Numbered from the stretch's first letter, positions 30,801 to 50,662 are shown. The stretch is 50,662 nucleotides of DNA from Oscillospiraceae bacterium (GCA_009779295.1 WREN01000001.1:1-50662), one strand, 5' to 3'. A program made the numbers and translations. Notes: generated from the sequence alone by a model not told the origin.

Positions 30801-33800
30801 GCGCGCCCGTCCCATCGACGCCGAGCCTGATTGGGTACACCTCGGGCTGACCCACGGCGGCATATCCGTCAACAAGTATTACTCGGACAACCCCGAAATG
30901 ATACTCGGAACAATGGCTCCCGACGAACGTATGAACAGCAAATTCGGTACTGACAGCTTCACTGCTTGTTTACCCATAGAAGGAGCGGATTTAGCCGAAC
31001 AGTTAAAAACCGCATTGCTTAACATACAAGGCCAATACACCATTGAGGAATTGGACGACATTGAAGGCATTGACAACCACGCTATACCCGCCGACCCGCG
31101 CGTCAGAAACTTCAGTTACGCGCTCGTGATCCCGGCTGATAAATCGAATGAAGAAGCTGAAGGGCTGGCATATATTACGAAAATCGGCGATGATACGGTT
31201 ATTGGCGCTGGCCGGGTATATTACCGCGAGAACTCGATGATGTACCCGGTGGAATTGCCGGCGGCGACGCTGGAGCGCATCAAGGGTATGATCGCCCTGC
31301 GCGACTGTGTGCATGAACTCATCGATCTACAGCTTGACGAATGGACAGGCGAAGCGGCGATAAGAGCGAAACAAAATGAATTGAATATCCTGTACGACCG
31401 GTTCAACGCCGAATACGGGCTGATTAACTCACAGGTGAATAACCGGGCGTTCAACGCGGATTCCGCGTATTACCTGCTCTGCTCACTCGAAATACTGGAC
31501 GAGGACGGACAGCTTGAGCGCAAAGCCGATATGTTCACTAAACGCACAATCAAACAACGAACAGTCATCGAACACGTTAATACGGCAAGTGAAGCGCTCG
31601 CGGTTTCACTCTCCGAAAAAGCTAAAGTGGATATTGAGTATATGGCCGGTTTGACCGGATTTACGAACGACAAGCTCATTGGTGACTTAGAGAACGTTAT
31701 CTACTTTGATTTCGGCAACCCAAACAAATCCCTTCCGCCGTTCGACCCTGACAAAATGAAGATGTACGAAAAGTTCCCGCTTGTCACCGCCGAGGAGTAC
31801 CTCTCAGGCAATATCCGTGAAAAACTCTTTAAAGCTGAACGGTTCAATGAAACTTTCGGCGATGAGGTTCATGGCGTAGATACCACTATAAACGTGTACG
31901 CTCTGAAAACTGCCATGCCCAAAGACCTTGACCCGTCCGAAATAGCCGTGCGGCTCGGCTCCACTTGGATAGCGCCGGAGTATGTGCAGCAGTTTATGTA
32001 CGAATTGTTAAGAACAAACTGGCGTATGCGGGAAAGCCATCAGGTCAAGCACCATGAGTACACCGGCGAATGGCAGGTAACGGGCAAAGGCCGTTCGTTG
32101 TACAACGACATACTCGCTAACGTGACCTACGGTACAAACCGCATGAACGCCTATCAGATCATCGACGACACCCTCAACCTCCGCGATGTACGTGTATACG
32201 ATCACGTGAAGGATGCGGACGGCAAAGAGAAGCGCGTACTCAATAAAAAGGAAACGACGCTCGCGCAGCAGAAGCAGGAGCAGATCAAGCAGGCGTTCAA
32301 AGACTGGATATGGCAGGAGCCGCGGCGACGGCAGACGCTCGTTAAATTGTACAACGAACGGTTCAACAGCGTCCGTCCGCGCGAATACGACGGCAGTCAC
32401 ATCACTTTTTCTGGCATATCGCCGGAGATCACCCTGCGTAAACATCAACTGAACGCGATAGCGCACGGACTATACGGCGGTAATCTGCTGCTCGCCCATG
32501 TCGTCGGCGCAGGCAAGACTTTTGAAATGGTCGCTATTGCAATGGAGGGCAAACGCCTCGGGCTGTGCCATAAGTCATTGATGGCCGTGCCTAACCACCT
32601 GACCGAGCAATGGGCGGGCGAGTTCCTGCGGCTTTACCCTACGGCGAATATACTTGTGGCGACTAAAAAAGACTTTGAAATGCGCAACCGAAAAAAATTC
32701 TGCGCCAAGATAGCCACCGGCGACTACGACGCTGTTATCATCGGACATTCGCAGCTTGAAAAGATACCCATGTCAAGTGAGCGTCAGGAACGGCTCATAC
32801 GTGAACAGATATGGGAGATAGAGCAAGGCATAGAGGAATTAAAACGAACGCAGGGTGAACGCTTCTCTATCAAACAGCTTGAAAAGACGAAGAAGTCGCT
32901 TTTGGCGCGGCTGGAAAAACTGCTCAATGCAAAAAAACGCGACGACGTTGTTACTTATGAACAATTAGGAGTAGACAAGCTGTTCATTGACGAAGCGCAC
33001 GGCTTCAAAAATTTGTTCATGTATACGAAAATGCGGAACGTTGCGGGGCTTTCGACTTCAGAGGCGCAGAAATCCAGCGACTTGTTTATGAAATGCCGGT
33101 ACATGGACGAACTGACAGGCAACAAAGGCGTAGTTTTCGCCACGGGTACGCCGATCAGCAACAGTATGACCGAAATGTACACTATGCAGCGGTATCTTCA
33201 ATTTGATACCCTCGCGGAAAAAGGCTTAACGCACTTTGACAGTTGGGCGTCCATCTTCGGAGAAACGCAGACTTCGATAGAACTCGCGCCGGAGGGTACG
33301 GGCTACCGCGCGCGGACGCGATTCGCGCTGTTTCATAATTTGCCCGAACTAATGTATATGTTCAAAGAAGTGGCCGACATACAGACGGCGGATATGCTCA
33401 ACCTGCCCGTACCGGAAGCGAAATATGAGAATGTCATCGTACAGCCGTCCGAACGGCAAAAGGAAATGGTGCAGGAACTGTCAAAGAGAGCCGCGCTTGT
33501 CCATTCAGGGCGTGTAGACGCGAAAATCGACAATATGCTCAAAATAACGACTGACGGGCGCAAGATCGGGCTTGACCAGCGGCTGATCAACCCCCTGCTC
33601 TCCGACTTCGAGGGCAGCAAAGTCAACGCCTGCACCGATAATGTGTACCGCATATGGGACGAAACAAAAGACGGAAAACTTACCCAACTCGTGTTCTGCG
33701 ACTTTTCCACGCCGAACAAGAACGGGCGTTTCAACGTCTACGACGACGTCAAAACCAAATTGTTGGAACGCGGCGTACCTGAACACGAGATAGCTTTTAT

Positions 33801-35085: not shown

Positions 35086-35113
35086 CCGGCAGGCACAAAC
35101 AATACTACACATC

Positions 35114-35156
35114 GCGGCGGCGTGGGGTAAACAACCTCGCCGCCGCCATTTTTTTG
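35114..35156 (+). terminator. rho-independent terminator; it may also be part of oriT
   Basis: GCGGCGGCG (35114-35122) pairs with CGCCGCCGC (35138-35146), followed by CATTTTTTT. It lies directly upstream of mobC. Confidence 0.65.
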
Positions 35157-35531
35157 GAGGTGGTCATTACGGTAAAGCAAAAAAAGAAAGAATCGGAAAA
35201 AAAGCGGACGCGGGATCAGTATATTACCTTCCGCGTCACCGGGCAGGAGCGGGACATGATAGACCGCCGCATGGCGCAGGCCGGCATGAAGAACCGCCGC
35301 GCTTATCTGCTCAAAATGGCGGCGGACGGGCAGATTGTCCGCCTTGAATTAGACAGTGTGAAAGAAATGGTGCGGCTACTCTCCAACGCGACCAACAACA
35401 TCAACCAAATAGCACATCGCGCCAACGCGACCGGCAGTATCTACGCTGCCGACCTCGACGAACTGCGCGGACGGTACGACGAGATTTGGAAACAGACGAA
35501 GGAGATACTGCACAAGTTAGCTCAAATTTGA
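35154..35531 (+). CDS. mobC: MobC-family relaxosome accessory protein
   Basis: RRAYLLKMAADGQIVRLELDSVKEMVRLLSNATNNINQIAHRANATG is the MobC signature region. The exact start is uncertain. Confidence 0.85.
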   Translation: MEVVITVKQKKKESEKKRTRDQYITFRVTGQERDMIDRRMAQAGMKNRRAYLLKMAADGQIVRLELDSVKEMVRLLSNATNNINQIAHRANATGSIYAADLDELRGRYDEIWKQTKEILHKLAQI

Positions 35532-35546
35532 TGGGGGTGGTACTAC

Positions 35547-36998
35547 ATGGCGACGACATGGATAAAACCGCTTCATATCGGAAGCAAACGCGCGCGCTCC
35601 ACGGTTGTTTCCGACATTATCGGGTATATAAAGAACCCGCAGAAAACTGACGGCGGCAGTTTGATTGCCGCCTACGGTTGTGACAGCCGTTCGGCAGACG
35701 ATGAGTTTATGCTCGCCAAACGGGAATATGAGGACATTACGGGGCGAAGTCAAGGCAGGCGCGATGTTCTCGCCTATCACATCAGGCAGAGCTTCAAACC
35801 GGGCGAGGTTGACGCGGAAACCGCGAATAAGATCGGGTATGAATTAACGATGTCATTTACCAAGGGCAATCATGCTTTTGTCGTGGCTACCCACATAGAC
35901 AAGGCGCACATCCATAACCACATCATATTTAATTCGACCGCCTTGTCCTGCGAACGGAAATTCAACAATTTCTACAGGTCGGACAAAACGGTGCGCCGTA
36001 TCAGCGATTTGCTCTGCATAGAGAATGGGCTGTCAATCATAGAAAACCCACAACCGTCCAAAGGCAGGAATTACGCTAAACATATCGGCAGGCCAGCGAC
36101 ATGGCAGGAGAAGCTGTGCCGTCAAATTGACGGGTTGCTGCCCTCTTGTGCTGCGTTCGATGACTTCATTGCGGCGATGAAATCGGCGGGCTATACCGTC
36201 AACGAAAAACGCAAGCACATCACGTTCCTCGCCCCCGGTCAGATTAAGCCTACGCGCCTTGATACGCTGGGCGGTGAGTATACCGAAGCGGCGATAAGGG
36301 AACGGCTCGGCATGACGAGAACCATCGCGGCTTCCGGCGCGGGCGGGGGTCTTGATACGGGAATTCACGCCCGTTATACGGACGAACCGACACGGGTAAG
36401 CCTGCTCATAGACATACAGGCGAAGATACAGGAGGGTAATGGTGCCGGGTACGAACGATGGGCGCGCATATTCAACCTGAAGGAATCGGCCCGCACCCTG
36501 CTGTTTCTGAAAGAGAACGGCATAGACAGCTACGACGACCTCGTACAAAAAACCGCCGCCGCTTCCGCTGATTTCGATGAGCGTATGACGAAGATCAAGT
36601 CTGCTGAAAAACGTATGGCTGAGATTACCGAGCTTCAAAAACACATCGGCGCTTACGGCAAGACCCGCGAGGTATACGCGAAATACAAGGCGTCAGGGTG
36701 GAATTCCGATTTTTATGAGGAACACCGGACAGACATTACCCTGCACAACGCGGCTAAAAAACATTTCGACGACTTAAAAATTAAGAAGCTGCCTACTATC
36801 GCGTCGCTCAAACAGGAATACGCGGTTCATGCCGCTGAAAAGAAAAGTCTGTATCACGGCTACCACGAAGCGAAGGACACTATGCGCCAGCTTCTTGTGG
36901 CGAAAGGCAACGCTTCGCGCATACTCGGCATTGCCAACGATGCGCGGGAGCGCGACGATATGCGCGGACGCGCCCGGAGCATTGCGCCGGACAGATAG
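35547..36998 (+). CDS. relaxase/mobilization nuclease (MobA/VirD2 superfamily)
   Basis: Histidine triad HIDKAHIHNHIIFNS, an N-terminal region with candidate catalytic Tyr, 483 aa, directly downstream of mobC. Confidence 0.9.
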   Translation: MATTWIKPLHIGSKRARSTVVSDIIGYIKNPQKTDGGSLIAAYGCDSRSADDEFMLAKREYEDITGRSQGRRDVLAYHIRQSFKPGEVDAETANKIGYELTMSFTKGNHAFVVATHIDKAHIHNHIIFNSTALSCERKFNNFYRSDKTVRRISDLLCIENGLSIIENPQPSKGRNYAKHIGRPATWQEKLCRQIDGLLPSCAAFDDFIAAMKSAGYTVNEKRKHITFLAPGQIKPTRLDTLGGEYTEAAIRERLGMTRTIAASGAGGGLDTGIHARYTDEPTRVSLLIDIQAKIQEGNGAGYERWARIFNLKESARTLLFLKENGIDSYDDLVQKTAAASADFDERMTKIKSAEKRMAEITELQKHIGAYGKTREVYAKYKASGWNSDFYEEHRTDITLHNAAKKHFDDLKIKKLPTIASLKQEYAVHAAEKKSLYHGYHEAKDTMRQLLVAKGNASRILGIANDARERDDMRGRARSIAPDR

Positions 36999-37337
36999 GC
37001 TGATGGAATCAGTCGCAGCAGACCCGCCGAAGGCGGGGCTTAAACGGGTGCGCAGCTCCCGTGGGGTATTAGGGGCAGAATCCCCTAACAAGCGGTAAGT
37101 AGGTGGAACCCCACTTCCATTGCTTGCAAAACGGTATCGGAACGTTACGATAATAAATTTCGCGTAAACTGACAACGGCAACTACAATAGAACCAAAATA
37201 AACCCTGTGACACGAGAAAATCAATCGATTTTCTGTGCGTACAACAAGCGTTCAATGTACTTCCAATTTTATTATTGTACGCCTTATCTGCGTCCAATGT
37301 AAGTATATAATAAAAAAACTAAAGGAGAAATATTCAT

Positions 37338-38252
37338 ATGATAATAGCTATAGACCACGGAAATAAGCAAATCAAACTGCCGGGAGGACATGTCTTTACT
37401 TCCGGCCTGCGCGAAAGCGACGCCAAACCGCCGTTCGGCGACGACGTTCTGAAATACAAAGACAAATATTATTCGCTCTCGGACAAGCGTATACCGTATA
37501 TGCGCGAAAAATTTATCGACGACCGGTTCTACATCCTCACCCTGTTCGCCATAGCTTTTGAAATCGAGGACACAGGGCGTTACGATCCGGGCGTAATGCG
37601 CGTCCATGTCTTGGCCGGACTACCTCCCGCTCATTTCGGAACGCAGTACGAACGATTTGAAAACTATTTCAAGCGCGGCGTTGATGAATTTGAGTTTCAC
37701 GGCAAGAACTTCAATATTAATATATATGATGCGACGGCTTACCCGCAGGCGCTCGCCGCCGCTGTTCCGGTAATTGGGGAAATTAGCTCCCTGCCCAAAG
37801 CGGTTGTTTTGGATATAGGGGGATTCACGGCTGATTACCTCATATTAAAACATGGCCGTGCTGACTTGTCGGATTGCGATTCCCTTGAACATGGGGTTAT
37901 CATCATGTATAACCAGATCACCGCGAAAGTAAACTCCGACTTGGATTTGCTGCTGGACGAATCCGATATTGACACGATCCTGCAAGAAACGCCGAACGAT
38001 TTTCCTGATAACATTAAGCGTATCGTACATGATACGGCACAAGTATTCGTGTCAGACTTGTTCGGGAAATTACGTGAACGGGCGATTGACCTGCGCTCCG
38101 GTAAAACCGTATTTGTCGGCGGCGGCTCTATTCTGCTCAGGGAGCAGATAGAAGCGTCCGGAAAGGTCGCTTCGCCAATTTTCGTGGATAAAATATCAGC
38201 CAACGCGAAAGGGTACGAGTTGTTGTACAGAGCGTTCAAATCGAGGGGGTGA
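37338..38252 (+). CDS. ParM/StbA-like actin-fold segregation ATPase
   Basis: Actin-fold motifs IIAIDHGNKQIK (phosphate 1), VVLDIGGFTADY (phosphate 2) and VFVGGGSILL (adenosine). Confidence 0.75.
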   Translation: MIIAIDHGNKQIKLPGGHVFTSGLRESDAKPPFGDDVLKYKDKYYSLSDKRIPYMREKFIDDRFYILTLFAIAFEIEDTGRYDPGVMRVHVLAGLPPAHFGTQYERFENYFKRGVDEFEFHGKNFNINIYDATAYPQALAAAVPVIGEISSLPKAVVLDIGGFTADYLILKHGRADLSDCDSLEHGVIIMYNQITAKVNSDLDLLLDESDIDTILQETPNDFPDNIKRIVHDTAQVFVSDLFGKLRERAIDLRSGKTVFVGGGSILLREQIEASGKVASPIFVDKISANAKGYELLYRAFKSRG

Positions 38253-38650
38253 TACGCTTGGACGATAAAAAATCCGCCACACGGTTTACGATACAATTCA
38301 ACCGTACCGACCACGCTCACCTCCGCGCGGCAGACATTCTTAACCAATACGAACGGTTCGGCAAAGCGCGGCATATCGTCAACGCCATACTTCATTATGA
38401 AGATTGTGAACACCGTGATATGCAGCCATCGGCGAAAATTGACGAGAAGTATATCGAAACGGTTGTCAACCGGATATTGCGCGAAAACTGTACAAGCGGC
38501 GATGATGTCCGGCTTGATTCCGATGATGTAAAACGGGAACATAACCAAAAGCCCCTTGACGAGATTGATTTTGACGGCGCGATGGAAATGCTGGGCGAAG
38601 ACGGCTTAAACGCCGTGGCGGACGCGCTGGATATGTTTAGAAAAAAATGA
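38249..38650 (+). CDS. hypothetical protein, possible ParR-like adaptor
   Basis: Overlaps the ParM-like stop (GTGA); an alternative start is TTG 38258. 133 aa. The assignment rests on position only. Confidence 0.45.
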   Translation: MIRLDDKKSATRFTIQFNRTDHAHLRAADILNQYERFGKARHIVNAILHYEDCEHRDMQPSAKIDEKYIETVVNRILRENCTSGDDVRLDSDDVKREHNQKPLDEIDFDGAMEMLGEDGLNAVADALDMFRKK

Positions 38651-38827
38651 TAAAAAAACATGGCGGGTTTGTTTTAATCCAACCCGCTGTGCCTTTGAAT
38701 ACTTTTTTTCAATATTTTATATGCTTATACATAGCGCGAAAATACCGAACAGGGCAACCTTTTGGGAGATATATAAATAAAGAAGAACGGAATCACCCGT
38801 TCTTGATAGTGCTTCCATTAAATTAAC

Positions 38828-38856
38828 TTTCGTAGAGTATTCAATTCTATGAAAAA
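38828..38856. repeat. left 29-bp inverted repeat containing a core-type recombinase site
   Basis: TTTCGTAGAGTATTCAATTCTATGAAAAA matches the reverse complement of 40246-40274 at 28 of 29 positions. Internal architecture is CGTAGAG-TATTCAA-TTCTATG (7-7-7). Confidence 0.85.
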
Positions 38857-39063
38857 TATGGTATTATTATATATCACTATAATTATAAAATATAATTTTA
38901 AATTTGTCAATACTATGTAGAAAATTAATGTTTTTTTAAGAGAAAATGTACGATCAGTTAGCATCTGACGGCGATATACGGGTTATGACGCGCGAAAAAG
39001 GTTTGCGCAACCCATTTATCGCCGTCAAATTTTAAGTCAAAATTTTTGAAAGGAATGATATAT

Positions 39064-40182
39064 ATGGCAAAACACGGAGAAAACATTTATAAGCGCAAAG
39101 ACGGGCGATGGGAAGCGAGGGTAATCAAGGGATATACTGAAAATGGCAAGGCTCTATACGCCTACATATACGGGCGGACTTATAGGGAAGCAAAAGAAAA
39201 AATCTTTAATTCGTTAACCTACACTATCGAAAATGTTGTTTCAGCAAAAACAACAACCGCGCCAAATTTCGAGAGTGTATTGGTTTTGTGGCTTGACAGA
39301 AAAAGGATCGGAATAAAAGAATCCTCATATGTTAAGTATTTCAACCTCATGAATAATCACATCAAGCCTTATTTGGGGAAATATCCAATATCAAGCATAG
39401 ACAGCGCGGTATTAAATTCATTTATCGCAGAAAAACTTAAAATAAACGGTTTATCGGAAAAAACGATGAAAGACATTATGACAGTTATAAAATCTGTTCT
39501 GCGGTTCGCAAAGGAAGAAGGATTAATTACAGAGATTGATTTTAAAATTAATCTCCCACGCGAAAAACAAAAGGATATGAGGGTTCTGACAAAAGATGAA
39601 CAAACCCTGCTCGAAAAATATTTGTGTTCCGAAATCGATGAGAACAAACTCGGAGTTCTTGTTTGTTTGTATACCGGGTTACGGGTCGGAGAAATTTGCG
39701 CGTTGAAATGGAGCGATATTTCATTGGATGAAAACACGCTCACAGTGAGCCGCACAATGCAGAGAATACAAACGTTAAACACTACCTACGATACAAAAAC
39801 CAAAGTGTTTGTTACCGATCCGAAAAGCGACTGTTCCGCGCGCGTTATCCCTCTGCCTGATTTCTTAATTAAAAAATTAAAAATGTTTCGTCCCGCGTAT
39901 GAAAACGCATATCTTCTCACCGGTAAACCAGAACGGTATATCGAACCGAGAACCTATCAAAACCGGTTCAAATCATACATTACGGGTAGCGGAATCAAAC
40001 ATGCAAATTTCCATTGCTGCCGACACACGTTTGCCACGAGATGTGTTGAGGTTGGCTTTGAAATAAAAAGTTTAAGTGAAATCCTCGGTCATGCTAACGT
40101 CAATATTACTTTAAACAGATATGTGCATCCGTCTTTTGATTTAAAACGCAGCAATATGAACAAGCTCGCTTGTTTTTATTGA
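39064..40182 (+). CDS. tyrosine site-specific recombinase/integrase with N-terminal Arm (AP2-like) DNA-binding domain
   Basis: N-terminus MAKHGENIYKRKDGRWEARV. Catalytic region LYTGLRVGEICAL (R), CCRHTFATRC (H-x-x-R), LGHANVNITLNRYVH (H...Y). The track ORF starts at TTG 39046; I prefer ATG 39064. Confidence 0.9.
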   Translation: MAKHGENIYKRKDGRWEARVIKGYTENGKALYAYIYGRTYREAKEKIFNSLTYTIENVVSAKTTTAPNFESVLVLWLDRKRIGIKESSYVKYFNLMNNHIKPYLGKYPISSIDSAVLNSFIAEKLKINGLSEKTMKDIMTVIKSVLRFAKEEGLITEIDFKINLPREKQKDMRVLTKDEQTLLEKYLCSEIDENKLGVLVCLYTGLRVGEICALKWSDISLDENTLTVSRTMQRIQTLNTTYDTKTKVFVTDPKSDCSARVIPLPDFLIKKLKMFRPAYENAYLLTGKPERYIEPRTYQNRFKSYITGSGIKHANFHCCRHTFATRCVEVGFEIKSLSEILGHANVNITLNRYVHPSFDLKRSNMNKLACFY

Positions 40183-40214
40183 TTACGCCGTCAAATTTAG
40201 AACGCCCCCATAAA

Positions 40215-40250
40215 AAAGCATTGATAAATCACGGTTTATCAATGCTTTTT
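40215..40250 (+). terminator. rho-independent terminator downstream of the recombinase gene
   Basis: AAGCATTGATAAA pairs perfectly with TTTATCAATGCTT across loop TCACGG, followed by TTTTT. The T-run is also the first 5 nt of the right inverted repeat. Confidence 0.85.
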
Positions 40251-40274
40251 CATAGAGTTGAATACTCTACGAAA
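40246..40274. repeat. right 29-bp inverted repeat containing a core-type recombinase site
   Basis: TTTTTCATAGAGTTGAATACTCTACGAAA with architecture CATAGAG-TTGAATA-CTCTACG. An extra half-site CTCTACG lies at 40288-40294. Confidence 0.85.
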
Positions 40275-40330
40275 ATATTTTTTTAAGCTCTACGAAAAAA
40301 ACACTTAATTAAATAATGTGAAATCGAAAT

Positions 40331-40406
40331 CGCTTAACCACGTTTCGCGTCAGCAACGAAGCTGAAGAAAGAGAACCTCAACTCCAAAATAAAAGAGGCA
40401 AAAAAA
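40331..40406 (+). promoter_or_regulatory. conserved leader/promoter module, copy A (upstream of the giant surface-protein gene)
   Basis: The 34-nt block at 40371-40404 matches 49112-49145 at 33 of 34 positions. The upstream 28-nt block matches at 21 of 28. Confidence 0.6.
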
Positions 40407-40422
40407 TTTGGGAGAAATGAAA

Positions 40423-43400
40423 ATGAAAAAAAGGATATTACATAAAATAATAACTTTTACTCTTGCGTTCGTGATGATTGCTGGGTTTACTCCAGCATTA
40501 CCAGTACATGCAGCAACTTCTCTTTGGGTAGGTAATGGAGGCTTACCATCTGGTTCAATTGTAGAAGAAGGAATATCTTTTTGGTGGGGTTTGGATATTA
40601 TAAGAGATGATTATGGTAGCATACCGAACCTTGATATAAAGGTTGATGTCATTAATGGCAAATTACCAACTGGCATATACCACGACAGGAATGGCGTATT
40701 TGTAGGTACTCCTGTAGAACCAGGTACATTTACTTTTTCTCTCAGAGTAACTCAAATAAGCACTGGGTTTACGGGTACACTTCTTAACCATACAATCATA
40801 GTCGTACCCCATCGTCCTCTCATTCCAACTGCGGCAATAACCATTGTCGAACCAATAACAGGCAATGCGCCAAATGTATCAGCTAACGGAACCGGTTTAT
40901 TTACTGTTGGCACAGTATCATGGACTCCGAATCATAACCCGTTCCGTGCAGGAACATCTTATACGGCACAAGTTACGTTGACAGCTAACGGAGGTTATAA
41001 GTTTTCAAACTCAACAAATGCTACGATAAATGGGCAAATTGCAAGAAACGTATCATTGGGAGGTCTACTGGGTAACGGAGAAATAACGATATCATATACG
41101 TTCCCTTCCACCCCCCCTATATCCATTGGTGAACAGCAAGGCAGGTTATTCCCCGGTATTCCCGGAACTGTTGTTTTCCCTATAAATGGTATACCAGACG
41201 GCAGTTACAATGATGTAACGGTTAACAATCTTCCGCCCGGCGTAACAGTTGAAAGACCAATTGTTATTTCGAATAACACTGGTATTTTGAAATTAACAGG
41301 AAGCACGGCTACAATCACTGGAATAACTTCAAACTTGAGGTTAACAATTAACGGAAACATTTCAGAGCCGTTCATTTTATATGTGACTGATATTAACGAA
41401 CCAATAGAAATATTTACGGCTGAAGAATTCAACACTGTTGTTCGAGATTACGGTCGCTATCCGTATAGTCATTTCAAAATCATGAATGATATTGACCTCT
41501 CTGAAATTAACAACGGTATTTGGGAACCGATTGGTACGACATCTCAACCATTCAGAGGCACAATTGAAGGTCGTTTTAATATGATTTCGGGCGTTAATGT
41601 TGCGCCGGGTAGTTCCGCTTACGGTCTATTTGGGTATAGCGAAGGAATTATTAAAGATTTAGGAGTGGAATACACATCTCGTTTTGGCGGAGTTGCCGGA
41701 AATAACAGCGGAAGTATTGTAAACAGTATTACCAAATTTGAACTCAGAAACCCAACATCATGGACAGGCAACAACCGAATTGCAGACAAGGTCGTGCTTA
41801 TAGACCTTTCAAGCCCAAATCAATCTAAACTGATCAACAGAACCCTCACAATAGCTGATACTGTTGAAACCGTTGTATTCAGAGGACGAGATACAATATA
41901 TGAAGGGCTTAGTATTGTTATTGAAGGCAATACCACTGTGGTTTTAGATGATTTTAGATTTCAAGCTCGCCCCGGCGAACATGCGATTAATTTTATCGGA
42001 GGCGTTGGCTCTAATCCTGCTATTATTTCGACAGGAAGCCGAAACAACAATTTAATACAAGGCTGGCACACGCATAATGCGGTGCAGAGTAACGGCAATT
42101 TATTTATTGGCGGCAACGCAAACTTAACCGTCGATTATAAAGAACCGAGCGCAGATATTCAAAGGAATGGGCTCGATGCGATTCATTTGAATGGAAATTT
42201 AACCGTTGCATTAGACGCTGCCTTGAAAGCGCAGGGTGGCAATGGCGGCGATGGTGGAACGGTACAAAAAGCCGGATCAGCAGGTGATAACGGTGTTAAA
42301 GGTGGTGACGGCGGCGCAGGGATTCACTCTTTTGGCTTGAATATTCTTAATTATTCAGAAGTAATTGTTATAGGAGGCAACGGCGGAAATGGAGGTCATG
42401 GTGGCAATGGCAGTCATGGTACAAATGGCAATAAAGGGTTAGATGCGATAGATTTTAATCGTGATATAATTCCCACTTTGCTTGGTTCACCTGAAAACGA
42501 CGGAGAGGATGGAGGTACCGGAAATCAAGGTGGTAACGGCGGTGATGGGGGCGACGGCGGAAAAGGCGGAGACGCCATACAACTTAGTACGAATCTTTAT
42601 TATTATTCACAACAAAGCTGTATTCGTATGATTGCTGGTCAAGGTGGAAACGGCGGTCGAGGCGGAAGTGGCGGCAACGGCGGCAACGGTGGCAACGGTG
42701 GCAATGGTGCTAATGCTGGATTGCTCGGTGGTAGGGGTGGCAATGCCGGAAATGGTGGTCGAGGTGGTAACGGAGGAAAAAACGGTGATGGAGGTTGGAA
42801 CGGGTCTTTATTATATGTTAATGGGCAAACTATTTATGGCGAATCACAAAAATATGGCGGAGGAGCTTATACGGACAGAACCTCTTTCGGTTCAGGTGGC
42901 AACCCTGGTTTCCCAGGTAGAGGTGCAGATGCAATGCTTCGTTGGTTTCCTGTTATTTCCGCAGGTATAGACGGAAGTGACGGAAACCAAGGTAATCCGG
43001 GGGTTTCTGGTTCATTGGGTGGCGAAGGTATACCGCGGCCAATGAACGAGGAGGAAATGACCGGCTTTCTTGGGAATCTTATACCATCTGATTTTTGGAA
43101 CACAATGCGTGTTGAATTCCAGCGGCGGCGTGTTGGTGCGGACAGGCTTATTATAGCAAGGATGCCATCAAGAACAACTTTCATTGCTGGTGAGATTTTT
43201 CGTCCTATAAGTAACTGGACTGATATAGAAATTGGACGCATGATAAACGGAGAATATGAACAGATATATAATCTTGGACAAGTGAACTTTTCACTTAATA
43301 ATTCTCCGTTAAACGTTTTTGACCGAGAAATTATAATAACGTCAGGTGCGTTTACTGCAAGAGTTCCGATAACAGTTAATCCTGTTTCTACAACGGAACT

Positions 43401-46191
43401 TATCCCTATTTTGCCGCCTGACCGTGGTCTTGTTTTTGAAGAAGGTAATCAGCTTGTGCCAACGCTACAACCTACTCCAGAATTGCGAACGTTGCATGGC
43501 TTAAGCTTAAGACGTATATTAATTAACGGTAATGAAAATATAATTGAAGGCGAAGATATTTTCTTAGGAATGCCAACGCCCAGACAAGATTATCTTTTTA
43601 GCACACGGGCGCGCATTGTTGATAAGCGTGAAAATGCCATAGATTACTTAAGAAATGCTGGCGGAAGACCACTTGACGAAGAAGATAAAGAAATAATAAT
43701 TGAAGATGGATACTGGTTTAATAATGATTTTATCGTTACCGCCAGTGTTTCAATTCCAATTGTTGTAAAACCAAGACCGGCAGCTGCTGCACCTATTGCG
43801 AGTGTTGATTCTGGCGCAGTTGCTATTGGTACGGAAATAATACTTACAAGCGATATGCCGAATATTGGATTATCAAACGGAAGCCGAAGCGTATTTATTC
43901 GATATACCACAAATGGCTCTGAACCAACGCGAATATTAAGCAGTACAGTATTTGATGGGTCGCAGCCTATTAATATTAACGGTAATACGAACATAAAAGC
44001 GAAAGTTTTTTATACCGAAGAAATTGAAGTCTGCGCAGAAAGAAATTGGGTTGAATATAGAACAACAGAGAGTGGTACAGTCACGTTTAGTTATACGTTA
44101 TTAGATCGTATAGAAATTGAGCATCCAAACGATATATTGGTGCAGGGGTTAGATTTTGGTACGCACCCACAAAATGTTATTATTAACCCGGATACAATTA
44201 CAATAAAAAACACAGGGGGTACACCGACTGGAAATATAAATATAGAGGTATATAACTTAGAGGGTTTACCTCATGAAAACTTTAAACTTTTAAACGAATC
44301 CATTACTGGAATACCGGTCGGAGGATTTGCTACATTCGAAATACAGCCCGGAACTTCAGCTGGATTGTCGGCAGGGCAACACGTTGCAATTGTTGTTTTG
44401 AGCGGAATTAATATGGAACCGATAATGATAGCAACATGGGTTGATATTTTAACGGAAAGCGATAACGCACAGATACCAAACATAATTAACCATCCACAAA
44501 ACGCAACTGTTACGGTCAATGCGGCGTATAATCTGATCGTTTCGGCAAATGTCACGGACGGTGGTAGTTTAAGTTATCAATGGTACAGCAATACAATTGC
44601 GTCCAATACGGGTGGCACGATTATACAGGGAGCGACGAACGAAACATTTACCGTGCCTACAGGTATAGCAGGAACATATTATTATTACGTCGTAGTAACA
44701 AACACAAACAACGATGTAGGCGGAATAAAAACAGCGACAGTGACGAGCGACTTCGCTATAATAACGATTCTTAATATACTTGACCCTTACGAACCACAAA
44801 TCAACATTACAAACGCAACAGGACGGGCAGGCGAAGAGATAACGCTGACAGTTACGATGGAAAACATACCGCAAATTGCGGGATATGGCATTTCGATGAC
44901 TTATGACCCTAATGTGTTTACATACATCTCAGCAGCGCCCGGCGATATTCTGCCGGAGAGATTCATCGATCAAATAAGGCCAAATAATCGGATGTTTTTC
45001 AGTTCGTATGACGACGACGGCAATTTTGAAACAGGTACAACATTATTTACGGTAACTCTTAAAATAGACGACAATATAGGAGAAGGCGTTATCGAGCCCG
45101 CTGCACTATATTTCTCATATTTTAATACAGTGATTGAGGGCTTCGATACTGGCGATACGATATACCCTGAGATAAATCAGCCAGTTATCACGGTCATCAA
45201 CGTTTTCTACGGCGATGTGAACGGCGACGGCAGGCTGAACATTTCCGACAGGACAAGGATGAACCAATTCTTCTCGGACAATCTACCAGAAGGTGCAGTA
45301 TTTATAGAGGCAAACGCAGACGTAAACGGCGACGGACGATTGAACATATCAGACAGAACCGTGATGAACCAGTTTTTCGCGGGTACGAGAGATTATCTCG
45401 GGCCGCAGATAACCCCAGCGTTTTTCAGTTTCATTTTACCCACACTTATACCAGTAAATGAGCCGGAGATACTTGTATCTAACGTTTCCGGTAAGGTCGG
45501 CGATACAGTTAGCTTAACCGTATCGATAAAAGATAATCCAGGACTATCAGGTTACGGCATATCGATGCGTTACGATGAGAACTTGTTAACCTTCATATCA
45601 GCGTCGGCGGAAGATATACTGTATGATAATTTCGTCGTTATTGAGAAGCCAGACGGACGAATCCACTTCAACTCGTATAACGATGACGGCGAGTTCGAAA
45701 CCATTGAAGAGCCGGAAGACGAAGAGGAATTTGTAGATGAAACAATATTATTCACGGTGACGTTCAGAATCAACGAGACAGTTTCTGGAGGCGTTAACTC
45801 TATAGGAGTAGTAGAGTTCTATTACGATAATTTCGTTATCGAAGGATTCGCGATATGCGAGGCCGATGGAATCACGCCGAAAACGATATATCCGGAGATA
45901 CCGTTAGGATTTGTTACAGTAGAGGTTGGTAATGCGGTTACGATTGTGAACGCGGTTGCGCAGTACATCAGCATAGCAGAGACATCGAAAAATTCCGGAG
46001 TATGGGCGTTGACGTTTAGAGTAACGGAAACGTGGTCGAACGGTGAGACGAAAGTAGTGCCGTACACGATCAACATCAAAGCTAACAACGCGAATGTAGA
46101 TGGCAGATACAACCTCGGAGCGTATATTTTAATTTACGATATCAAAGGTAACGGCTCTAACATCAGAGAGTTTAGGGTTATACTGAAGTAA
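40423..46191 (+). CDS. giant secreted surface protein: Ig-like domains, GLUG-type module, Gly-rich GGNGG repeat region, cohesin - dockerin - cohesin, conserved C-terminal module
   Basis: Signal peptide [29 protein letters not shown]. Dockerin [22 protein letters not shown]...[21 protein letters not shown] (45205-45390). Two cohesin-like modules (~44.81-45.20 kb and ~45.47-45.93 kb). ATG 40423 follows GGGAG by 8 nt; the track start is TTG 40408. Confidence 0.85.
42230..42810 (+). repeat. coding low-complexity region of (GGNGG/GGDGG)n tracts alternating with short hydrophobic strands
   Basis: The translation reads GGNGGDGG..., [43 protein letters not shown] and [28 protein letters not shown]... 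Confidence 0.85.
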
Positions 46192-46354
46192 ACGAATTTT
46201 TATTTGAAAATAAATAATTTAAAATAATGAGGATTTTATTATGAAAACAGAAATGTATATTTTACCTTGTACAAGAGCATCTCCGAAATACAAACGACGA
46301 AAAGTTACTCAAAATAAAATTATAAAATTTAGATTTCTATAGGAGGCAATTATA

Positions 46355-48937
46355 ATGCAAATAATAAGAAAAAAAGTTTTTTGTGTGTTTTTAACTTTGG
46401 CATTGGTATTTAATATGTTTATAATATTTCCGATAAATACATTTGCGGCAGAATCGGAAAATGTACCAACTGTCTTTGTATCAAGCGCACAAGGCAAACC
46501 AGGCGATCTCATATCCTTAACCGTTTCTTTTCAAAATAATCCGGGATTATCGGGATACGGTATCACATTGAAATTCAATCCGAGCAAATTAACTTATGTT
46601 ACATCGAATCCGGGTGTAGTATTATCAGATAACTTCACCCGCACAGTAAGAACCCAATTGAACGAAATCTTTTTTGTTTCTTATGATAACGATGGAAATT
46701 ATGTTGACGGAGAAAATTTGTTTTCAGTTTCATTCATTATAGATCCAAATTTAACAGACAGGGTTATTGAAGGCGAAGATATAATGTTCTTCTATAAAAA
46801 CATTATACTTGAAGGGTTCGAAATACCTGATGGCGGGGGCGATACCATATATCCTACAATAATACAACCCAGAATCGAAGTAGAAAATGATGAATGTGAA
46901 CACGAATACGACGATGGTGTAGAAACTACAAAAGCAACTTGTATTGAAGAAGGGTTGATGACTTACACTTGCTCTTATTGCGATGATAGTTATACCGAGC
47001 CTATATCGATAGACCCAAATAACCATGTCGGAGGCACATATGAAGAAGAGATAATAGTTGCAACATGTGTCGTTGAGGGTCTTATGGGTATCTATTGTAA
47101 TAGTTGCAATGAGTTGCTTGATACTCGGATAATACCAATAAAAACTGAACATCCTGGCGATACATATGAACAAATAATCACTGCGGCGACATGTGTCGCT
47201 ACGGGAATAATGGGTATTTACTGCACTGATTGTGATTATTTTCTCACTACAAATATTATACCGATAAACCCTGAAAATCATGTTGGCGGTACATATGAAA
47301 ATATAATTACTAATCCAACTTGTATTACCAAAGGTATCATGGGTATCTATTGTTCCGGGTGCAATGAATTACTTGAAACGGAATCAATATTAGGAGGTCA
47401 TCCTGGAGGTTCTTATCAAAATGAAATTATTGCGGCGACTTGTATTTCTGAAGGAACAATGGGTATATATTGTTCTGAATGTTACGAATTAATCGAGACA
47501 GAGACAATACCGATAAATCCGGACAACCATGTAGAAAGTTCATATACACAGGAATATATTCCGGCGACATGTATTACTGAAGGAACGCTGGGTATTTATT
47601 GTGCTGGTTGTCATGCTTTGATCGAAACAGAATTTGTAGTAATAAATCCAAACAACCACATCGGCGAAACATATAGAAGCGTAATTATTCCGCCGACATA
47701 TGATGCTGAAGGTTTAAGGGGTATTTATTGCTCAGGCTGCCACGAATTGCTTGACACAGAAATAATCTCTCCAATAGATTGCAAACACGAAGATGGTACA
47801 TATGAAGAAGTCATCACGTCCGCTACATGCGTTGCTGAAGGATTAGTAGTTACTCACTGTAATAATTGCCATGATGAACTCGGAACTGTTATTATACCGA
47901 TCAACCCAAACAACCACGTAGGCGGAACATACGAAGATGAAATCACTGCCGCTACATGTGTTGCCGAAGGTTTAATGGGTATTTACTGTAATAGCTGCGA
48001 TGTTCAACTTCATACAGCATCGACTGTAATAAACCCGAATAACCATGTCGGTGGCACATATGAAGAGGTAATCACTACCGCTACATGCGTAACTACAGGA
48101 ACAATGGGTATTTATTGCAATGACTGCGATGAATTGCTTGAAACTGATACGATACCATTAAATCCGATTAATCACGCTGGCGATACATACAGAGACGTTA
48201 TTACTATTGCGACATGCGCTACCGAAGGCGTCATGGGTATTTATTGCTCTGACTGTAATGCATTGATTTATACAGAGCCTATTGCGAAAAACCCTGATAA
48301 TCATGTTGGTGGGACATATGAAGAAATGATAGTTGCTCCGACATGCATAGCCACAGGAATAATGGAAGTTTATTGTAATAGTTGCCATGAATTGCTTGAA
48401 ACTGATACAATACCAATAAACCCGATTAATCATATTGGCAATACATACAATAATGTGATCACTGTTTCGATTTGCGTTACTGAAGGCGTCATGGGAATTT
48501 ATTGCTTTGACTGTAATGCATTGATTTACACAGAACCAATTGCGATAAACCTTGATAATCATGTTGGCGAAACTTATGAAGCCGTTATTACGGAAGCGAC
48601 TTACACGAACGAAGGATTAATGGGTATCTACTGCTCTGGTTGCGGTGCGTTGCTCGAAACGGAAGTTATTCCGATAAAACAAGACGAGCAAAAAGACTGC
48701 GACTTTTTACGTGAAAGAGCAGCTGGAATACTTAAAAACGGTTTAAAAACGGATAATCTACGCCTCGTTGGTAAAGTGTTGACGTTAGTTATTGATGGCA
48801 GAGAATTCATTCTCAGTAAAAATGCTAATAATCGTAATATCGAGGGCGAAATCCCTCTTGGCGATGGTTGCTATCTAAGATTCGACATCAAGGGTAACGG
48901 TTCAAATATTAAAGTTTTTGAAATTATTAAAAAATAA
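46355..48937 (+). CDS. secreted cohesin-domain protein with 14 tandem His/Cys repeats and the shared C-terminal module
   Basis: GGAGG lies 8 nt upstream. Signal peptide, cohesin-like [43 protein letters not shown], then the repeats. Confidence 0.85.
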   Translation: MQIIRKKVFCVFLTLALVFNMFIIFPINTFAAESENVPTVFVSSAQGKPGDLISLTVSFQNNPGLSGYGITLKFNPSKLTYVTSNPGVVLSDNFTRTVRTQLNEIFFVSYDNDGNYVDGENLFSVSFIIDPNLTDRVIEGEDIMFFYKNIILEGFEIPDGGGDTIYPTIIQPRIEVENDECEHEYDDGVETTKATCIEEGLMTYTCSYCDDSYTEPISIDPNNHVGGTYEEEIIVATCVVEGLMGIYCNSCNELLDTRIIPIKTEHPGDTYEQIITAATCVATGIMGIYCTDCDYFLTTNIIPINPENHVGGTYENIITNPTCITKGIMGIYCSGCNELLETESILGGHPGGSYQNEIIAATCISEGTMGIYCSECYELIETETIPINPDNHVESSYTQEYIPATCITEGTLGIYCAGCHALIETEFVVINPNNHIGETYRSVIIPPTYDAEGLRGIYCSGCHELLDTEIISPIDCKHEDGTYEEVITSATCVAEGLVVTHCNNCHDELGTVIIPINPNNHVGGTYEDEITAATCVAEGLMGIYCNSCDVQLHTASTVINPNNHVGGTYEEVITTATCVTTGTMGIYCNDCDELLETDTIPLNPINHAGDTYRDVITIATCATEGVMGIYCSDCNALIYTEPIAKNPDNHVGGTYEEMIVAPTCIATGIMEVYCNSCHELLETDTIPINPINHIGNTYNNVITVSICVTEGVMGIYCFDCNALIYTEPIAINLDNHVGETYEAVITEATYTNEGLMGIYCSGCGALLETEVIPIKQDEQKDCDFLRERAAGILKNGLKTDNLRLVGKVLTLVIDGREFILSKNANNRNIEGEIPLGDGCYLRFDIKGNGSNIKVFEIIKK
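46895..48685 (+). repeat. 14 tandem coding repeats of about 129 bp (about 43 aa each)
   Basis: Unit consensus: H-x-G-G-T-Y-E-x-x-I-x-x-A-T-C-x-x-x-G-x-M-G-I-Y-C-x-x-C-x-x-L-x-x-T-x-x-I-P-I-N-P-x-N. Confidence 0.9.
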
Positions 48938-48981
48938 TTTTAATAATCGAAAATTGTAATAAAATTTTGTAATTATTAAAA

Positions 48982-49025
48982 ACACGGGCGGTTCATTTAA
49001 AATAAACAACTGCCCGTGTTTTTTA
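48982..49025 (+). terminator. rho-independent terminator
   Basis: ACACGGGCGG (48982-48991) pairs with CTGCCCGTGT (49010-49019), followed by TTTTT. Confidence 0.8.
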
Positions 49026-49077
49026 GTAATATTTAAATATGGTACCATACACAAGGTTGCTCGCTCCGAAAAAGATT

Positions 49078-49147
49078 CTCTTAGCCATGTTACGCGATAA
49101 CAACGCGGCAGGAGAACCTCAACTCCATAATAAAAGAGGCAAAATAA
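49078..49147 (+). promoter_or_regulatory. conserved leader/promoter module, copy B (upstream of the MACPF gene)
   Basis: See copy A. GAGAACCTCAACTCCATAATAAAAGAGGCAAAA lies at 49112-49145. Confidence 0.6.
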
Positions 49148-49170
49148 TAATAATTCTGGAGGAACAAAAA

Positions 49171-50662
49171 ATGAAAAAAACATTTCGCAAACTTATGGCA
49201 ACGTTTTTAGTTATGGTTATGATGATGACCATGATACCTACGGTCACATTGCAAGTTCAAGCTCAATCTTCAATACCCGACGGACTTGGCTTAGGACACC
49301 TATTAAAGGGATTCAACTCCTTAGCCAGTAATTCGGCTGACCGCATACTCCTCGTAGAAAACCTTAAAAATCTACCATCAGAACGAATTTTCAAAGAAAA
49401 TTCGTTCGATGTCTTCCAAAATTTCCTGTTTTTGAATACAGTTACCGTTGGTGATGATAAAACAATCATTGCGAGATCAATGACTGAATATGCATTAGAC
49501 ACAATAAAAGGCTGGGGTTTTCAAGCAAACCTTGAACTTGCTGTTGAATTAGGCAAAGCACCTGTAAAAACAATTGTCAAAACAAAAATAGAAGAACGAT
49601 TTAGTAAGATAACCAACGAATTATTAAGAACGTCTACAAATGAACTATATTATGAAAGCCTCACGTGGCTACGTCGAGGGATTTATGAAATAGATTTTAG
49701 TTACATACCGGAGGACTTAATTCGGACACAATTAAATCCTGTTTTCCTACGAGACTTGTTAGATAAAAATGTCACCCCAGAGCAGCTATTCCGTACATAC
49801 GGAACACACTTTCTTACGCAATACTCTATGGGTGGTTGGATAGAAGCCGGTATATATTCTATCGATGAAACAATCAATGAAAAAATATCGAAGGTAAATG
49901 AATGGTCTGGAACAGTAGCAGATGTAAACAACTCAATTGAACAAAATGGAACACATAGTGCGCGCCATAACTCAACGACAAGGATTCATGGCGGGCATGG
50001 CGGGGTTATCAATTCTACCAATCCAAATGATGCTCAAAATGCTAAAAACACTTGGTTACAAAGTTTTAATAGGACTGATTGGTGGGGTGTATGCGAAATA
50101 CTTACTATTCCTGATCCCCGTGTGCCACTTGAATTCACGGGTATATGGGAATTGCTCCCCGAAGAAGAATGGATAAGATACGACGAATTAGTACAGGCGT
50201 ATATTGCGTTAGCTACTGATATGGATAGTAATTTCTTTACGAATTTCATATACAGACAATTACAACCGATAGGCAATTTGCCGCCGCCAAGTATCAATGA
50301 AAATACTATAAGAATTACTAACCAAACCGAGCTTGACGCCGTCCGAAACAATCTGTCAGGTACATACATCCTTATGAACGACATCACTTTATCGGGGAAC
50401 TGGGAACCAATCGGTTCGGCGACTGCTCCGTTCACTGGTACGTTTATAGGTAACGGATATACGGTAAGTAACGTCAGCATTGTTTCCGGTAACACAACTC
50501 CCGGACTTTTCGGAATCAACAGAGGCACAATCGAATCCCTTGCGGTCGTTTATAATAACGTCAACGGTCATCGCCCCAGTAGCGTTGCGAGTAGAACCGA
50601 GGGGGCAGGGGTTGTCAATGCCAGTTATCCGAATTGGAACATAAACCCTACGATTAGCAGGG
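49171..50662 (+). CDS. secreted MACPF (membrane-attack complex/perforin) domain protein with a downstream GLUG-type module; the 3' end runs off the window
   Basis: Absent from the ORF track, which shows no ORFs lacking a stop. I read 497 consecutive sense codons from ATG 49171 to the window end. GGAGG lies 8 nt upstream. Signal peptide MKKTFRKLMATFLVMVMMMTMIPTVTLQVQA. YGTHFLTQYSMGG at 49798-49836 fits the MACPF signature (Y/W)-G-(T/S)-H-(F/Y)-x6-G-G exactly. Confidence 0.8.
   Translation, partial: MKKTFRKLMATFLVMVMMMTMIPTVTLQVQAQSSIPDGLGLGHLLKGFNSLASNSADRILLVENLKNLPSERIFKENSFDVFQNFLFLNTVTVGDDKTIIARSMTEYALDTIKGWGFQANLELAVELGKAPVKTIVKTKIEERFSKITNELLRTSTNELYYESLTWLRRGIYEIDFSYIPEDLIRTQLNPVFLRDLLDKNVTPEQLFRTYGTHFLTQYSMGGWIEAGIYSIDETINEKISKVNEWSGTVADVNNSIEQNGTHSARHNSTTRIHGGHGGVINSTNPNDAQNAKNTWLQSFNRTDWWGVCEILTIPDPRVPLEFTGIWELLPEEEWIRYDELVQAYIALATDMDSNFFTNFIYRQLQPIGNLPPPSINENTIRITNQTELDAVRNNLSGTYILMNDITLSGNWEPIGSATAPFTGTFIGNGYTVSNVSIVSGNTTPGLFGINRGTIESLAVVYNNVNGHRPSSVASRTEGAGVVNASYPNWNINPTISR

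Follow-up and report, generated by a model that had tools for sequence, protein, structure and literature searches.

What does a conjugative element carry when a tyrosine recombinase, cohesin and dockerin modules and a MACPF domain lie side by side in its AT-rich flank? The question is raised by a contig of 50,662 bp from Oscillospiraceae bacterium (GCA_009779295.1, WREN01000001.1:1-50662), which was analysed in its entirety and is called the window below. Its AT-rich block encodes four co-directional genes, one for the recombinase and three for exported proteins, referred to here as genes 1, 2 and 3. An initial annotation, made from the sequence alone, had read the block as a recombinase-switched surface complex, assembled by cohesin-dockerin pairing and carrying a MACPF pore former. 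As a whole, that interpretation is partly supported. The reading preferred here is a non-cellulosomal cohesin-dockerin surface assembly with a MACPF domain displayed at its tip and with genes 1 and 2 under an invertible cassette; judged on sequence, it has in our view an even chance of being correct. Coordinates are collected in Table 1; related loci are cited by L numbers and related proteins by P numbers.

The modules of a cohesin-dockerin assembly are found in genes 1 and 2. Gene 1 encodes, in this order, a signal peptide, an Ig-like region, a GLUG-like module, a beta-helix-like region, Gly-rich rungs, an Fn3_assoc domain and a tail of cohesin, dockerin, cohesin and a C-terminal domain (CTD). 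The initial annotation had called it an adaptor with two cohesins and one dockerin, and so it is: the Pfam cohesin model PF00963 matched with 74.8 bits over two stretches (cut-off 24.1) and the type I dockerin model PF00404 with 32.3 bits (cut-off 22.9). The dockerin has two nearly identical calcium-loop repeats, and its nearest solved relatives in a PDB search are the dockerins of C. thermocellum CelD and CelS. Gene 2 had been described as a second cohesin protein on a repeat stalk with the same C-terminal module, which was confirmed by a PF00963 match of 31.1 bits, by 14 repeats of 43 aa and by a CTD in common with gene 1 (BLASTP E=5e-6; own hidden Markov model (HMM) 1e-29 and 7e-41). No dockerin was found in gene 2, which is a candidate base or anchoring scaffoldin. 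The three cohesin modules of the two proteins share 36-42% mutual identity. The stalk repeats follow the pattern H-x13-C-x9-C-x2-C, and their one His and three Cys would suit metal binding; repeats of this type also precede the CTD in P0037, P0052 and P0053 and the membrane helix of the L034 MACPF protein. As read by eye, genes 1, 2 and 3 all start with signal-peptide-like N-termini.

The last 463 residues of gene 1 (aa 1462-1924) align end to end with the tail of a MACPF protein from locus L011 (38% identity, E=1e-74), so that the cohesin-dockerin-cohesin-CTD series reads as a conserved C-terminal unit accepting different heads. The first 1456 aa of gene 1 gave no match to the PDB with phmmer. 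No catalytic carbohydrate-active domain was found in the locus with Pfam, and to this extent the annotated lack of carbohydrate-active domains stands; accessory Fn3_assoc and CHB_HEX_C_1 domains were matched. Dockerin-bearing carbohydrate-active enzymes, which on cohesins make a cellulosome, are absent from the locus on the window contig, and the 28 relatives of the cohesin-dockerin-cohesin-CTD cassette likewise show no catalytic domain of this kind.

The head of gene 3 matches the MACPF model PF01823 with 32.5 bits (cut-off 21.5). It contains the signature YGTHF-x6-GG (YGTHFLTQYSMGG), which agrees with the consensus (Y/W)-G-(T/S)-H-(F/Y)-x6-G-G and is invariant across six relatives. A six-sequence profile of the head finds its best PDB matches in GNIP1Aa (6FBM, 1.4e-9), Plu-MACPF (2QP2, 2.3e-8), Mpf2Ba1 (8B6V) and Bth-MACPF (3KK7), followed by pleurotolysin B, complement C6-C9 and perforin. 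The NCBIfam family NF053771 of the BSAPs, proteins of roughly 400-550 aa, scores 19 bits against a cut-off of 500, with a weak BSAP5a match over about 100 residues. By these comparisons the head appears to be a bona fide member of the MACPF family and not a BSAP. Gene 3 had also been said to share the GLUG module with gene 1. Sharing was confirmed for a module of 90 aa (39% identity, E=5e-11), and the name was not: the Pfam Glug model PF07581 matches neither gene 1 aa 331-481 nor gene 3 aa 374-497 even at E<=10. Matches to it were found at the equivalent position in the homologues L009 (25.6 bits), L035, L041 and L044, and GLUG is therefore used here as a label borrowed from homologues.

Gene 3 runs off the window. 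A second assembly, L001 (ENA ERZ27257304), which differs in 1 base in 14.3 kb and is about 0.4 kb longer, adds 139 residues to it and enters a beta-helix-like body as in gene 1. The window, L001 and the closest relative (P0002 in L007) all break off near one point of the MACPF gene, immediately in front of the Gly-rich GGNGG repeats known from gene 1 and L034. Assembly probably failed here on low-complexity DNA, and the gene itself would continue. That gene 3 ends in a dockerin, a cohesin or a CTD is given a probability of roughly one half.

Relatives of the MACPF head were sought by scanning the head alignment against species-representative genomes and Joint Genome Institute metagenomes, with domains assigned by Pfam and own HMMs. 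The family is rare, with 31 matches among 5.8 billion proteins, and by their record names these come mostly from termite-gut metagenomes. Five independent loci tie the head to dockerin or cohesin-dockerin modules. In L009, from a metagenome-assembled genome of Oscillospiraceae, the order is MACPF, GLUG, Big_2 (three copies), dockerin, and in L035 it is MACPF, GLUG, Big_3, cohesin, dockerin, cohesin, FIVAR. L010 has a MACPF gene ending in cohesin-dockerin-cohesin, followed directly by a gene of 356 aa with cohesin and CTD that appears to be the counterpart of gene 2. L011 carries three consecutive cohesin-dockerin-cohesin-CTD genes with GLUG, MACPF and Flg_new heads, and in L038 a split MACPF gene is followed by an LRR-Flg_new-cohesin-dockerin-cohesin gene. 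The protein of L034 has the same head and the same GLUG, beta-helix and Gly-rich body, and its tail consists of a stalk of Cys repeats with a hydrophobic helix at the C-terminus. No cohesin, dockerin or recognisable anchor was found in L008, L012, L039, L041 and L044. Because of the L034 helix and the cohesin and dockerin tails, surface tethering recurs among those long-form relatives that have a recognisable C-terminal module. In our reading of these sequences the members of the subfamily would be large proteins in which a stalk carries the head at its distal end. Several have a recognisable tether, and cohesin-dockerin would be a recurrent tether of the subfamily and not the only one.

Further observations were made around these relatives. 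The L034 MACPF gene (3096-9249) adjoins a gene with a serine-recombinase-like N-terminus (read by eye); mobile-element-type genes adjoin the MACPF family in the window, L010 and L034. In L004 (10001-12096) a convergent DDE-transposase gene extends into the 3' end of the related MACPF gene P0005, which was probably truncated by this insertion and which adjoins a gene for an LRR-dockerin protein of 2871 aa. The dockerin relative P0059 is fused to an N-acetylmuramoyl-L-alanine amidase domain, a passenger that is not a carbohydrate-active enzyme and may be antibacterial.

The CTD common to genes 1 and 2 is about 85 aa long, with the features ETSKNSxVW, NNANxDG and DIKGNGSNI, and no Pfam or NCBIfam model matches it. 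A profile search of 1.84 billion representatives returned 377 clusters. Among the 150 matches listed (of 377) the domain lies at the extreme C-terminus with one or two exceptions; the proteins listed, which include many fragments, have lengths between about 60 and 4134 aa. The carriers include 5'-nucleotidases, metallophosphatases, a YhcR-like nuclease, peptidases M28, S8 and M14, GH5, GH43, CBM9, VWA and Flg_new proteins, cohesins and dockerins. AlphaFold2 modelled the CTD as a six-stranded all-beta domain with a predicted local distance difference test (pLDDT) score of 91; Foldseek found no PDB entry that resembles this model at E below 0.1, and TM-scores did not exceed 0.4. Since such heterogeneous exoproteins carry one common terminal module, we infer a role in surface retention or sorting; alternatively, the domain may bind a matrix or a partner.

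The breadth of these modules also fits a wider function, in which the cohesins of the locus take up many dockerins encoded elsewhere, possibly those of enzymes, so that the MACPF protein would be one passenger of a general surface display and the neighbouring genes would have arisen by local duplication and shuffling. Many other heads (Flg_new repeats, LRR, amidase and GLUG proteins) are combined with related dockerins, the GH5, GH43 and CBM9 proteins among the CTD carriers are enzymes that could be displayed in this way, L011 has its three paralogous genes with different heads, and about half of the long-form MACPF relatives yielded no cohesin or dockerin. Yet the pairing of a MACPF-cohesin-dockerin-cohesin gene with a following cohesin-CTD gene is repeated in L010, genes 1 and 3 have leader and body in common, and the 28 matches to the cohesin-dockerin-cohesin-CTD cassette include no glycoside hydrolase. 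General display is regarded as possible but somewhat unlikely.

The second part of the preferred reading concerns the recombinase. It matches Phage_integrase of Pfam with 90.9 bits (E=1e-25), and inspection of its translation by eye shows the catalytic residues R (GLRVGE), H-x-x-R (HCCRH) and Y (NRYVH), which together make it a tyrosine recombinase; Xer and integron-integrase models all stayed under their cut-offs. The inversion-type sites noted in the initial annotation are 29-nt inverted repeats, 97% complementary, and each arm is itself an imperfect dyad, as in the core sites of tyrosine recombinases. The repeats enclose the recombinase gene together with an outward-facing promoter TTGACA-17-TATAAT (38882..38910), the sole perfect consensus match in the 12-kb block. 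As the cassette is assembled, the minus-strand hairpin outside the left repeat would insulate this promoter on the left, and the hairpin with T-run at 40213..40250 would insulate gene 1 from transcription of the recombinase. CGCCGTCAAA motifs lie at 39020-39029 and 38965-38973, within a dyad before the recombinase start, and at 40186-40195, just past its stop; they are kept in L052 and L053 and may be operator or accessory sites.

The same layout, with inverted repeats enclosing a segment with an outward promoter, is kept in four other members of the recombinase family that were examined: L052 (73% identity), L053 (70%), L056 and L059 of Agathobacter rectalis (51%). Their arms are 1.39-1.42 kb apart. 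The outer core TTTCGTA(G/A)AGTA of the arms is conserved and the inner part is altered on both sides at once, in a compensatory manner; the consensus promoter stands at the same place and on the same strand in all four. L056 is a metagenome contig of 1481 bp that starts and ends inside the repeat arms, and the external terminator could hence be compared in the window, L052, L053 and L059 only. A minus-strand hairpin with T-run was read by eye in L053 and L059 and none is evident in L052; the hairpin equivalent to 40213..40250 is also present in L053. Many of the contigs that carry the cassette are 1.4-1.5 kb long. These contigs and the breaks of L056 fit population heterogeneity at the arms and are no proof of it. 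In A. rectalis the arms are perfect over 25 nt, and the cassette lies upstream of genes for FHA, PP2C and Ser/Thr kinase proteins and a large surface protein. Thus defined, the recombinase unit is a conserved, self-contained cassette that also occurs in A. rectalis. The MACPF and cohesin loci L010 and L011 have no equivalent inverted repeats, and the L010 integrase is unrelated to the window recombinase. Top-ranked results of a literature search contained no description of a cassette with the recombinase inside an inverton.

A leader common to genes 1 and 3, also claimed initially, was found as a 37-nt core (40371-40407 and 49112-49148) that is 95% identical; by eye the two copies are about 75-80% identical over a stretch of some 70 nt, which runs from 40333 and 49080, respectively, up to the ribosome-binding sites. 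In both, a CAACTCC motif can pair with the ribosome-binding site. Because gene 3 follows the terminator-like hairpin 48982-49025, it is probably transcribed separately and may lie outside the switch; it would then share a leader control element with gene 1 and probably be co-regulated through this leader rather than directly by the switch. An Rfam match to mir-274 corresponds to the same hairpin and was dismissed as spurious.

From these parts the following mechanism is proposed. The CTD, with or without a stalk, would retain proteins at the cell surface or in the matrix, and the cohesin of gene 2 would form the root of the assembly. The dockerin of gene 1, and probably one of gene 3, would plug into the cohesins of gene 2 and of each other, and gene 1, probably also gene 3, would each offer two more cohesins, giving chains or a branched lattice. 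The lattice would keep the MACPF domain away from the surface of the producer, on the end of a long stalk, where it may attack a membrane on contact, that of a competing microbe or of a host cell. The 1.45-kb invertible cassette would set the expression of genes 1 and 2 through its own recombinase. As assembled, the cassette has its consensus promoter directed away from gene 1 and into a terminator, the presumed OFF state; after inversion this promoter would read through the right repeat and a 146-nt leader into gene 1, the ON state, and genes 1 and 2 would be expressed in the flipped subpopulation.

Several observations weigh against this picture. Every assembly that spans a cassette junction (the window, L001, L032, L052, L053 and 24 A. 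rectalis contigs) has a single orientation; the flipped form, sought at the assembly level in other assemblies including the 24 contigs, was found in none. Downstream of the cassette, L053 and A. rectalis have unrelated genes. In L054 a 65%-identical homologue without inverted repeats stands where the integrase of the element would sit, beside the relaxase and at the end opposite ParA/ParB, an end cut by the contig. The gene 1 leader has no significant RNA structure (folding z-score -0.63; -2.68, a moderate value, for gene 3; only two copies were available). An Rfam scan of the block matched no leader, which rules out a known RNA family, and gave only two spurious microRNA matches on terminator hairpins. 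The C-terminus of gene 3 lies beyond both the window and L001, which each end first, and L034, which among the complete relatives is the closest (38% head identity), is without cohesin, dockerin and CTD. The expected dockerin or DIKGNGSNI module on the MACPF protein has been seen in L009, L010, L011 and L035, and directly behind a split MACPF gene in L038, and neither in L034 nor in the incomplete gene 3. The AlphaFold2 model of the MACPF domain, from a six-sequence alignment, has a pLDDT of 34.7, too low for checking the membrane-inserting helix clusters. Each CTD-bearing subunit could anchor alone, which would make a scaffold unnecessary. Lastly, the CTD of gene 1 is about 75% identical (by eye) to that of an L011 protein encoded on an archaeal chromosome, which is odd for a module binding a specific cell wall.

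The points on the cassette would also be expected if the recombinase were a part of the conjugative element, an integrase or a selfish mobile cassette, which does not regulate the cohesin and MACPF genes and adjoins them incidentally. Its homologues follow directly on relaxase or type IV secretion system genes in L052, L053 and L054, the family is very large, the downstream genes vary among loci, and many contigs of 1.4-1.5 kb would be expected from a multi-copy element too. Integration sites, however, are direct repeats at the ends of an element, whereas inverted repeats here lie tightly around one gene. Contrary to a hopping element, the 24 A. rectalis contigs that were read all have the cassette at one fixed chromosomal place, and the neighbours listed for it, within about 6 kb, include no conjugation genes. 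All five cassettes have the outward promoter, and of the four with a flank three have the insulating terminator; a promoter flip explains both best. On these grounds we consider the recombinase unlikely to be an element part without regulatory function. The cassette is probably a strongly OFF-biased invertible promoter, a property of the element family rather than of the cohesin and MACPF genes, and it would probably control whatever lies downstream of its junction. The annotated switch control thus keeps its inverted repeats and its promoter, which would read into gene 1 after a flip, and loses force through the one orientation found; co-occurrence of the four gene families as a set did not hold, with unrelated genes behind the cassette elsewhere and no cassette at L010 and L011.

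The setting of the block was described correctly at the outset: a co-directional, AT-rich stretch (GC 0.34-0.48) beside a conjugative element (0.44-0.54). The higher GC applies to positions 1-38650; from about 38.7 kb on it is 0.34-0.44, and only the Gly-rich stretch of gene 1 departs from this, with 0.48. Positions 1-38650 encode ParA and ParB at the window start, a TraG/VirD4 coupling protein, TrbL/VirB6, a VirB4-like ATPase, an M23 peptidase, ArdC, MobC, a relaxase and a ParM-like protein, and the region is a conjugative element of the Bacillota type, with the cohesin and MACPF block adjoining its relaxase end. A group II intron-type reverse transcriptase (RVT_1, 135.7 bits) lies amid the transfer genes at 14863-16782, and a helicase-type protein of 3410 aa with MutS_I, SNF2-related and helicase domains is encoded at 24853-35085. 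A chimeric contig was considered and rejected, as the order of relaxase, cassette and AT-rich block, with the same drop in GC, recurs in L052 and L053. Owing to this recurrence the block resembles variable cargo in its behaviour. When 33000-41000 was compared with plasmids by Megablast, no match was returned, and for this reason the right boundary of the element is not defined by comparison. An open reading frame of 33 aa between genes 1 and 2 (46241-46342), basic and without matches, was called in two independent contigs (L001, L002) and may be spurious.

This neighbourhood admits yet another function. Aggregation adhesins are known from conjugative plasmids of Gram-positive bacteria, and in anaerobic methanotrophic (ANME) archaea a part in cell-cell adhesion has been suggested for cohesin-dockerin proteins. 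Genes 1 to 3 might likewise be aggregation or adhesion proteins of the element, which for example stabilise mating pairs or stick to gut surfaces, with a MACPF domain that binds and does not kill. The block adjoins transfer genes, its cohesin and dockerin content is self-complementary, and in L052 a dockerin protein of 2701 aa is encoded directly downstream of the cassette, in the position of gene 1. The MACPF signature and the profile matches nevertheless point to pore formers, and the same cohesin-dockerin cassettes occur in archaeal chromosomes, in L011 with no conjugation genes among the neighbours examined, although L010 does have a TrwB-like gene and an integrase nearby. An adhesive role of this kind is taken to be clearly improbable.

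The contigs of L010 and L011 are genuinely archaeal, with flanks that encode an archaeal diphthine-ammonia ligase (Dph6), an archaeal CobT and VhuA/VhuG hydrogenase; the TrwB-like gene of L010, for an ATPase, and the integrase directly adjoin its locus. The likeness of the modules suggests exchange between Bacillota mobile elements and termite-gut Bathyarchaeia. In its most extended form the preferred reading would describe a mobile, self-assembling cohesin-dockerin lattice with a stalk-tip MACPF for contact attack, switched ON by an inverton in a subpopulation, as a kit exchanged between Bacillota elements and the chromosomes of termite-gut Bathyarchaeia; that all of this holds together is improbable.

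Table 1. Positions of the features of the AT-rich block in the window and of related loci
Feature	Position	Strand	Remarks
Intrinsic-terminator-like hairpin	38783..38804	-	9-pair stem and T-rich tail, immediately outside the left inverted repeat
Left inverted repeat (IR-L)	38828..38856		29 nt, 97% complementary to IR-R
Sigma-70 consensus promoter TTGACA-17-TATAAT	38882..38910	-	12/12 match; outward-facing, inside the putative invertible segment
Dyad GACGGCGATAT...TATCGCCGTCAAA upstream of recombinase start	38958..39035		same motifs in L052 and L053
Tyrosine recombinase	39064..40182	+	372 aa; Phage_integrase and SAM-like N-terminal domains
16-bp hairpin and T-run	40213..40250	+	3' of recombinase stop, overlaps IR-R
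Right inverted repeat (IR-R)	40246..40274		pairs with IR-L
Leader module, copy 1	40333..40407	+	upstream of gene 1; repeat comparison
Gene 1	40423..46191	+	1922 aa; Pfam, own HMM, gene call
Gene 1, cohesin 1	44797-45201	+	
Gene 1, dockerin	45208-45375	+	
Gene 1, cohesin 2	45457-45927	+	
Gene 1, CTD	45931-46188	+	
Gene 2	46355..48937	+	860 aa; Pfam, own HMM, repeat analysis; signal peptide precedes the modules
Gene 2, cohesin	46460-46894	+	
Gene 2, repeats	~46880-48769	+	
Gene 2, CTD	48674-48934	+	
Terminator-like hairpin ACACGGGC.../...GCCCGTGT	48982..49025	+	between genes 2 and 3; large loop, then T6
Leader module, copy 2	49080..49148	+	upstream of gene 3; repeat comparison
Gene 3, partial	49171..50661	+	497 aa in the window (636 aa in L001); runs to contig end; signal peptide precedes the modules
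Gene 3, MACPF	49267-50289	+	
Gene 3, GLUG-like module	50308-50622	+	
Related cassette, L059 (A. rectalis)	5749-7219		
Related cassette, L052	7693-9163		
Related cassette, L053	7763-9238		
Archaeal locus L010	9884-15425		MACPF, cohesin-dockerin-cohesin, CTD
Archaeal locus L011	5145-18585		MACPF, cohesin-dockerin-cohesin, CTD
Further CTD instances			P0036, P0053, P0055, P0184-P0326

With cellulosome scaffoldins (C. thermocellum CipA and anchoring scaffoldins, R. flavefaciens ScaA/B/C/E, the adaptor ScaB of A. cellulolyticus) the locus shares the type I-like dockerin and the Pfam cohesins, as well as the logic of a base protein with cohesin, spacer and anchor (gene 2) and an adaptor with cohesins and a dockerin (gene 1). 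Unlike cellulosomes, it has MACPF, GLUG-like and beta-helix-like heads in place of catalytic carbohydrate-active domains, matches no SLH or sortase-type anchor in Pfam or NCBIfam and bears the unannotated CTD at the C-terminus instead, and places a compact cohesin-dockerin-cohesin series at the C-terminus of a subunit, as in gene 1 and its relatives. Cohesin-dockerin systems outside cellulosomes are the R. bromii amylosome, with both modules in Amy4, the toxin and glycosidase complexes of C. perfringens and those of ANME archaea. Like these, the systems described here use the pair outside cellulose degradation, combine both modules in one protein and occur in archaea; to our knowledge none of the R. 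bromii, C. perfringens and ANME systems has a MACPF domain.

Insecticidal and other bacterial MACPF proteins of the GNIP1Aa type are soluble, with a C-terminal receptor-binding domain. The chains of GNIP1Aa, Plu-MACPF, Mpf2Ba1 and Bth-MACPF are about 450-540 aa long and none has a cohesin or dockerin, in contrast to several relatives of gene 3. BSAP-1 to -5 are MACPF proteins that gut bacteria use against competitors, and the published accounts present them as diffusible toxins (PMC4999547, PMC12853789). In gene 3 the MACPF domain is instead the head of a stalked protein longer than 636 aa, and the tail of its relatives is a cohesin-dockerin series or a membrane tether.

Known invertible switches (Salmonella hin-fljBA, E. 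coli fimS with FimB/FimE, C. difficile RecV, Bacteroides Mpi/Tsr) have inverted repeats around a promoter, as found here, and in the window, too, inversion would switch an adjacent surface-protein gene on or off. As in hin, the recombinase gene of the window lies inside the segment together with the outward promoter; Hin is a serine recombinase, however, and the window enzyme a tyrosine recombinase, and FimB/E, RecV and Mpi lie outside their switches. The window cassette family differs further in that it is located at the backbone-cargo junction of conjugative elements, and chromosomally in A. rectalis, and that it is known from assemblies in one orientation only. In the literature search MACPF and dockerin were nowhere found together, perforin and dockerin co-occurred only in unrelated immunology, and nothing relevant was found on cohesin or dockerin with pore-forming or on Bathyarchaeia with dockerin, in agreement with the early statement that no described system with this combination was known to its author. 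By comparison of sequences, then, the assembly logic of adaptor and anchoring scaffoldins, the MACPF family and the hin-like layout would be the known parts, and the combination and the CTD anchor the new ones.

Cohesin-dockerin assembly is understood almost wholly as an organiser of plant-fibre enzymes. A pore former on a cohesin-dockerin scaffold, if true, would extend this principle to antagonism or host interaction, and it would be a tethered, contact-dependent variant as compared with the characterised bacterial MACPF toxins of about 450-540 aa. As by-products, the analysis provides an unannotated C-terminal domain family on hundreds of exoproteins, a widespread recombinase-in-inverton cassette shared by Agathobacter rectalis, a bacterium of the human gut that can be cultivated, and near-identical surface modules in a bacterial mobile element and in archaeal chromosomes.

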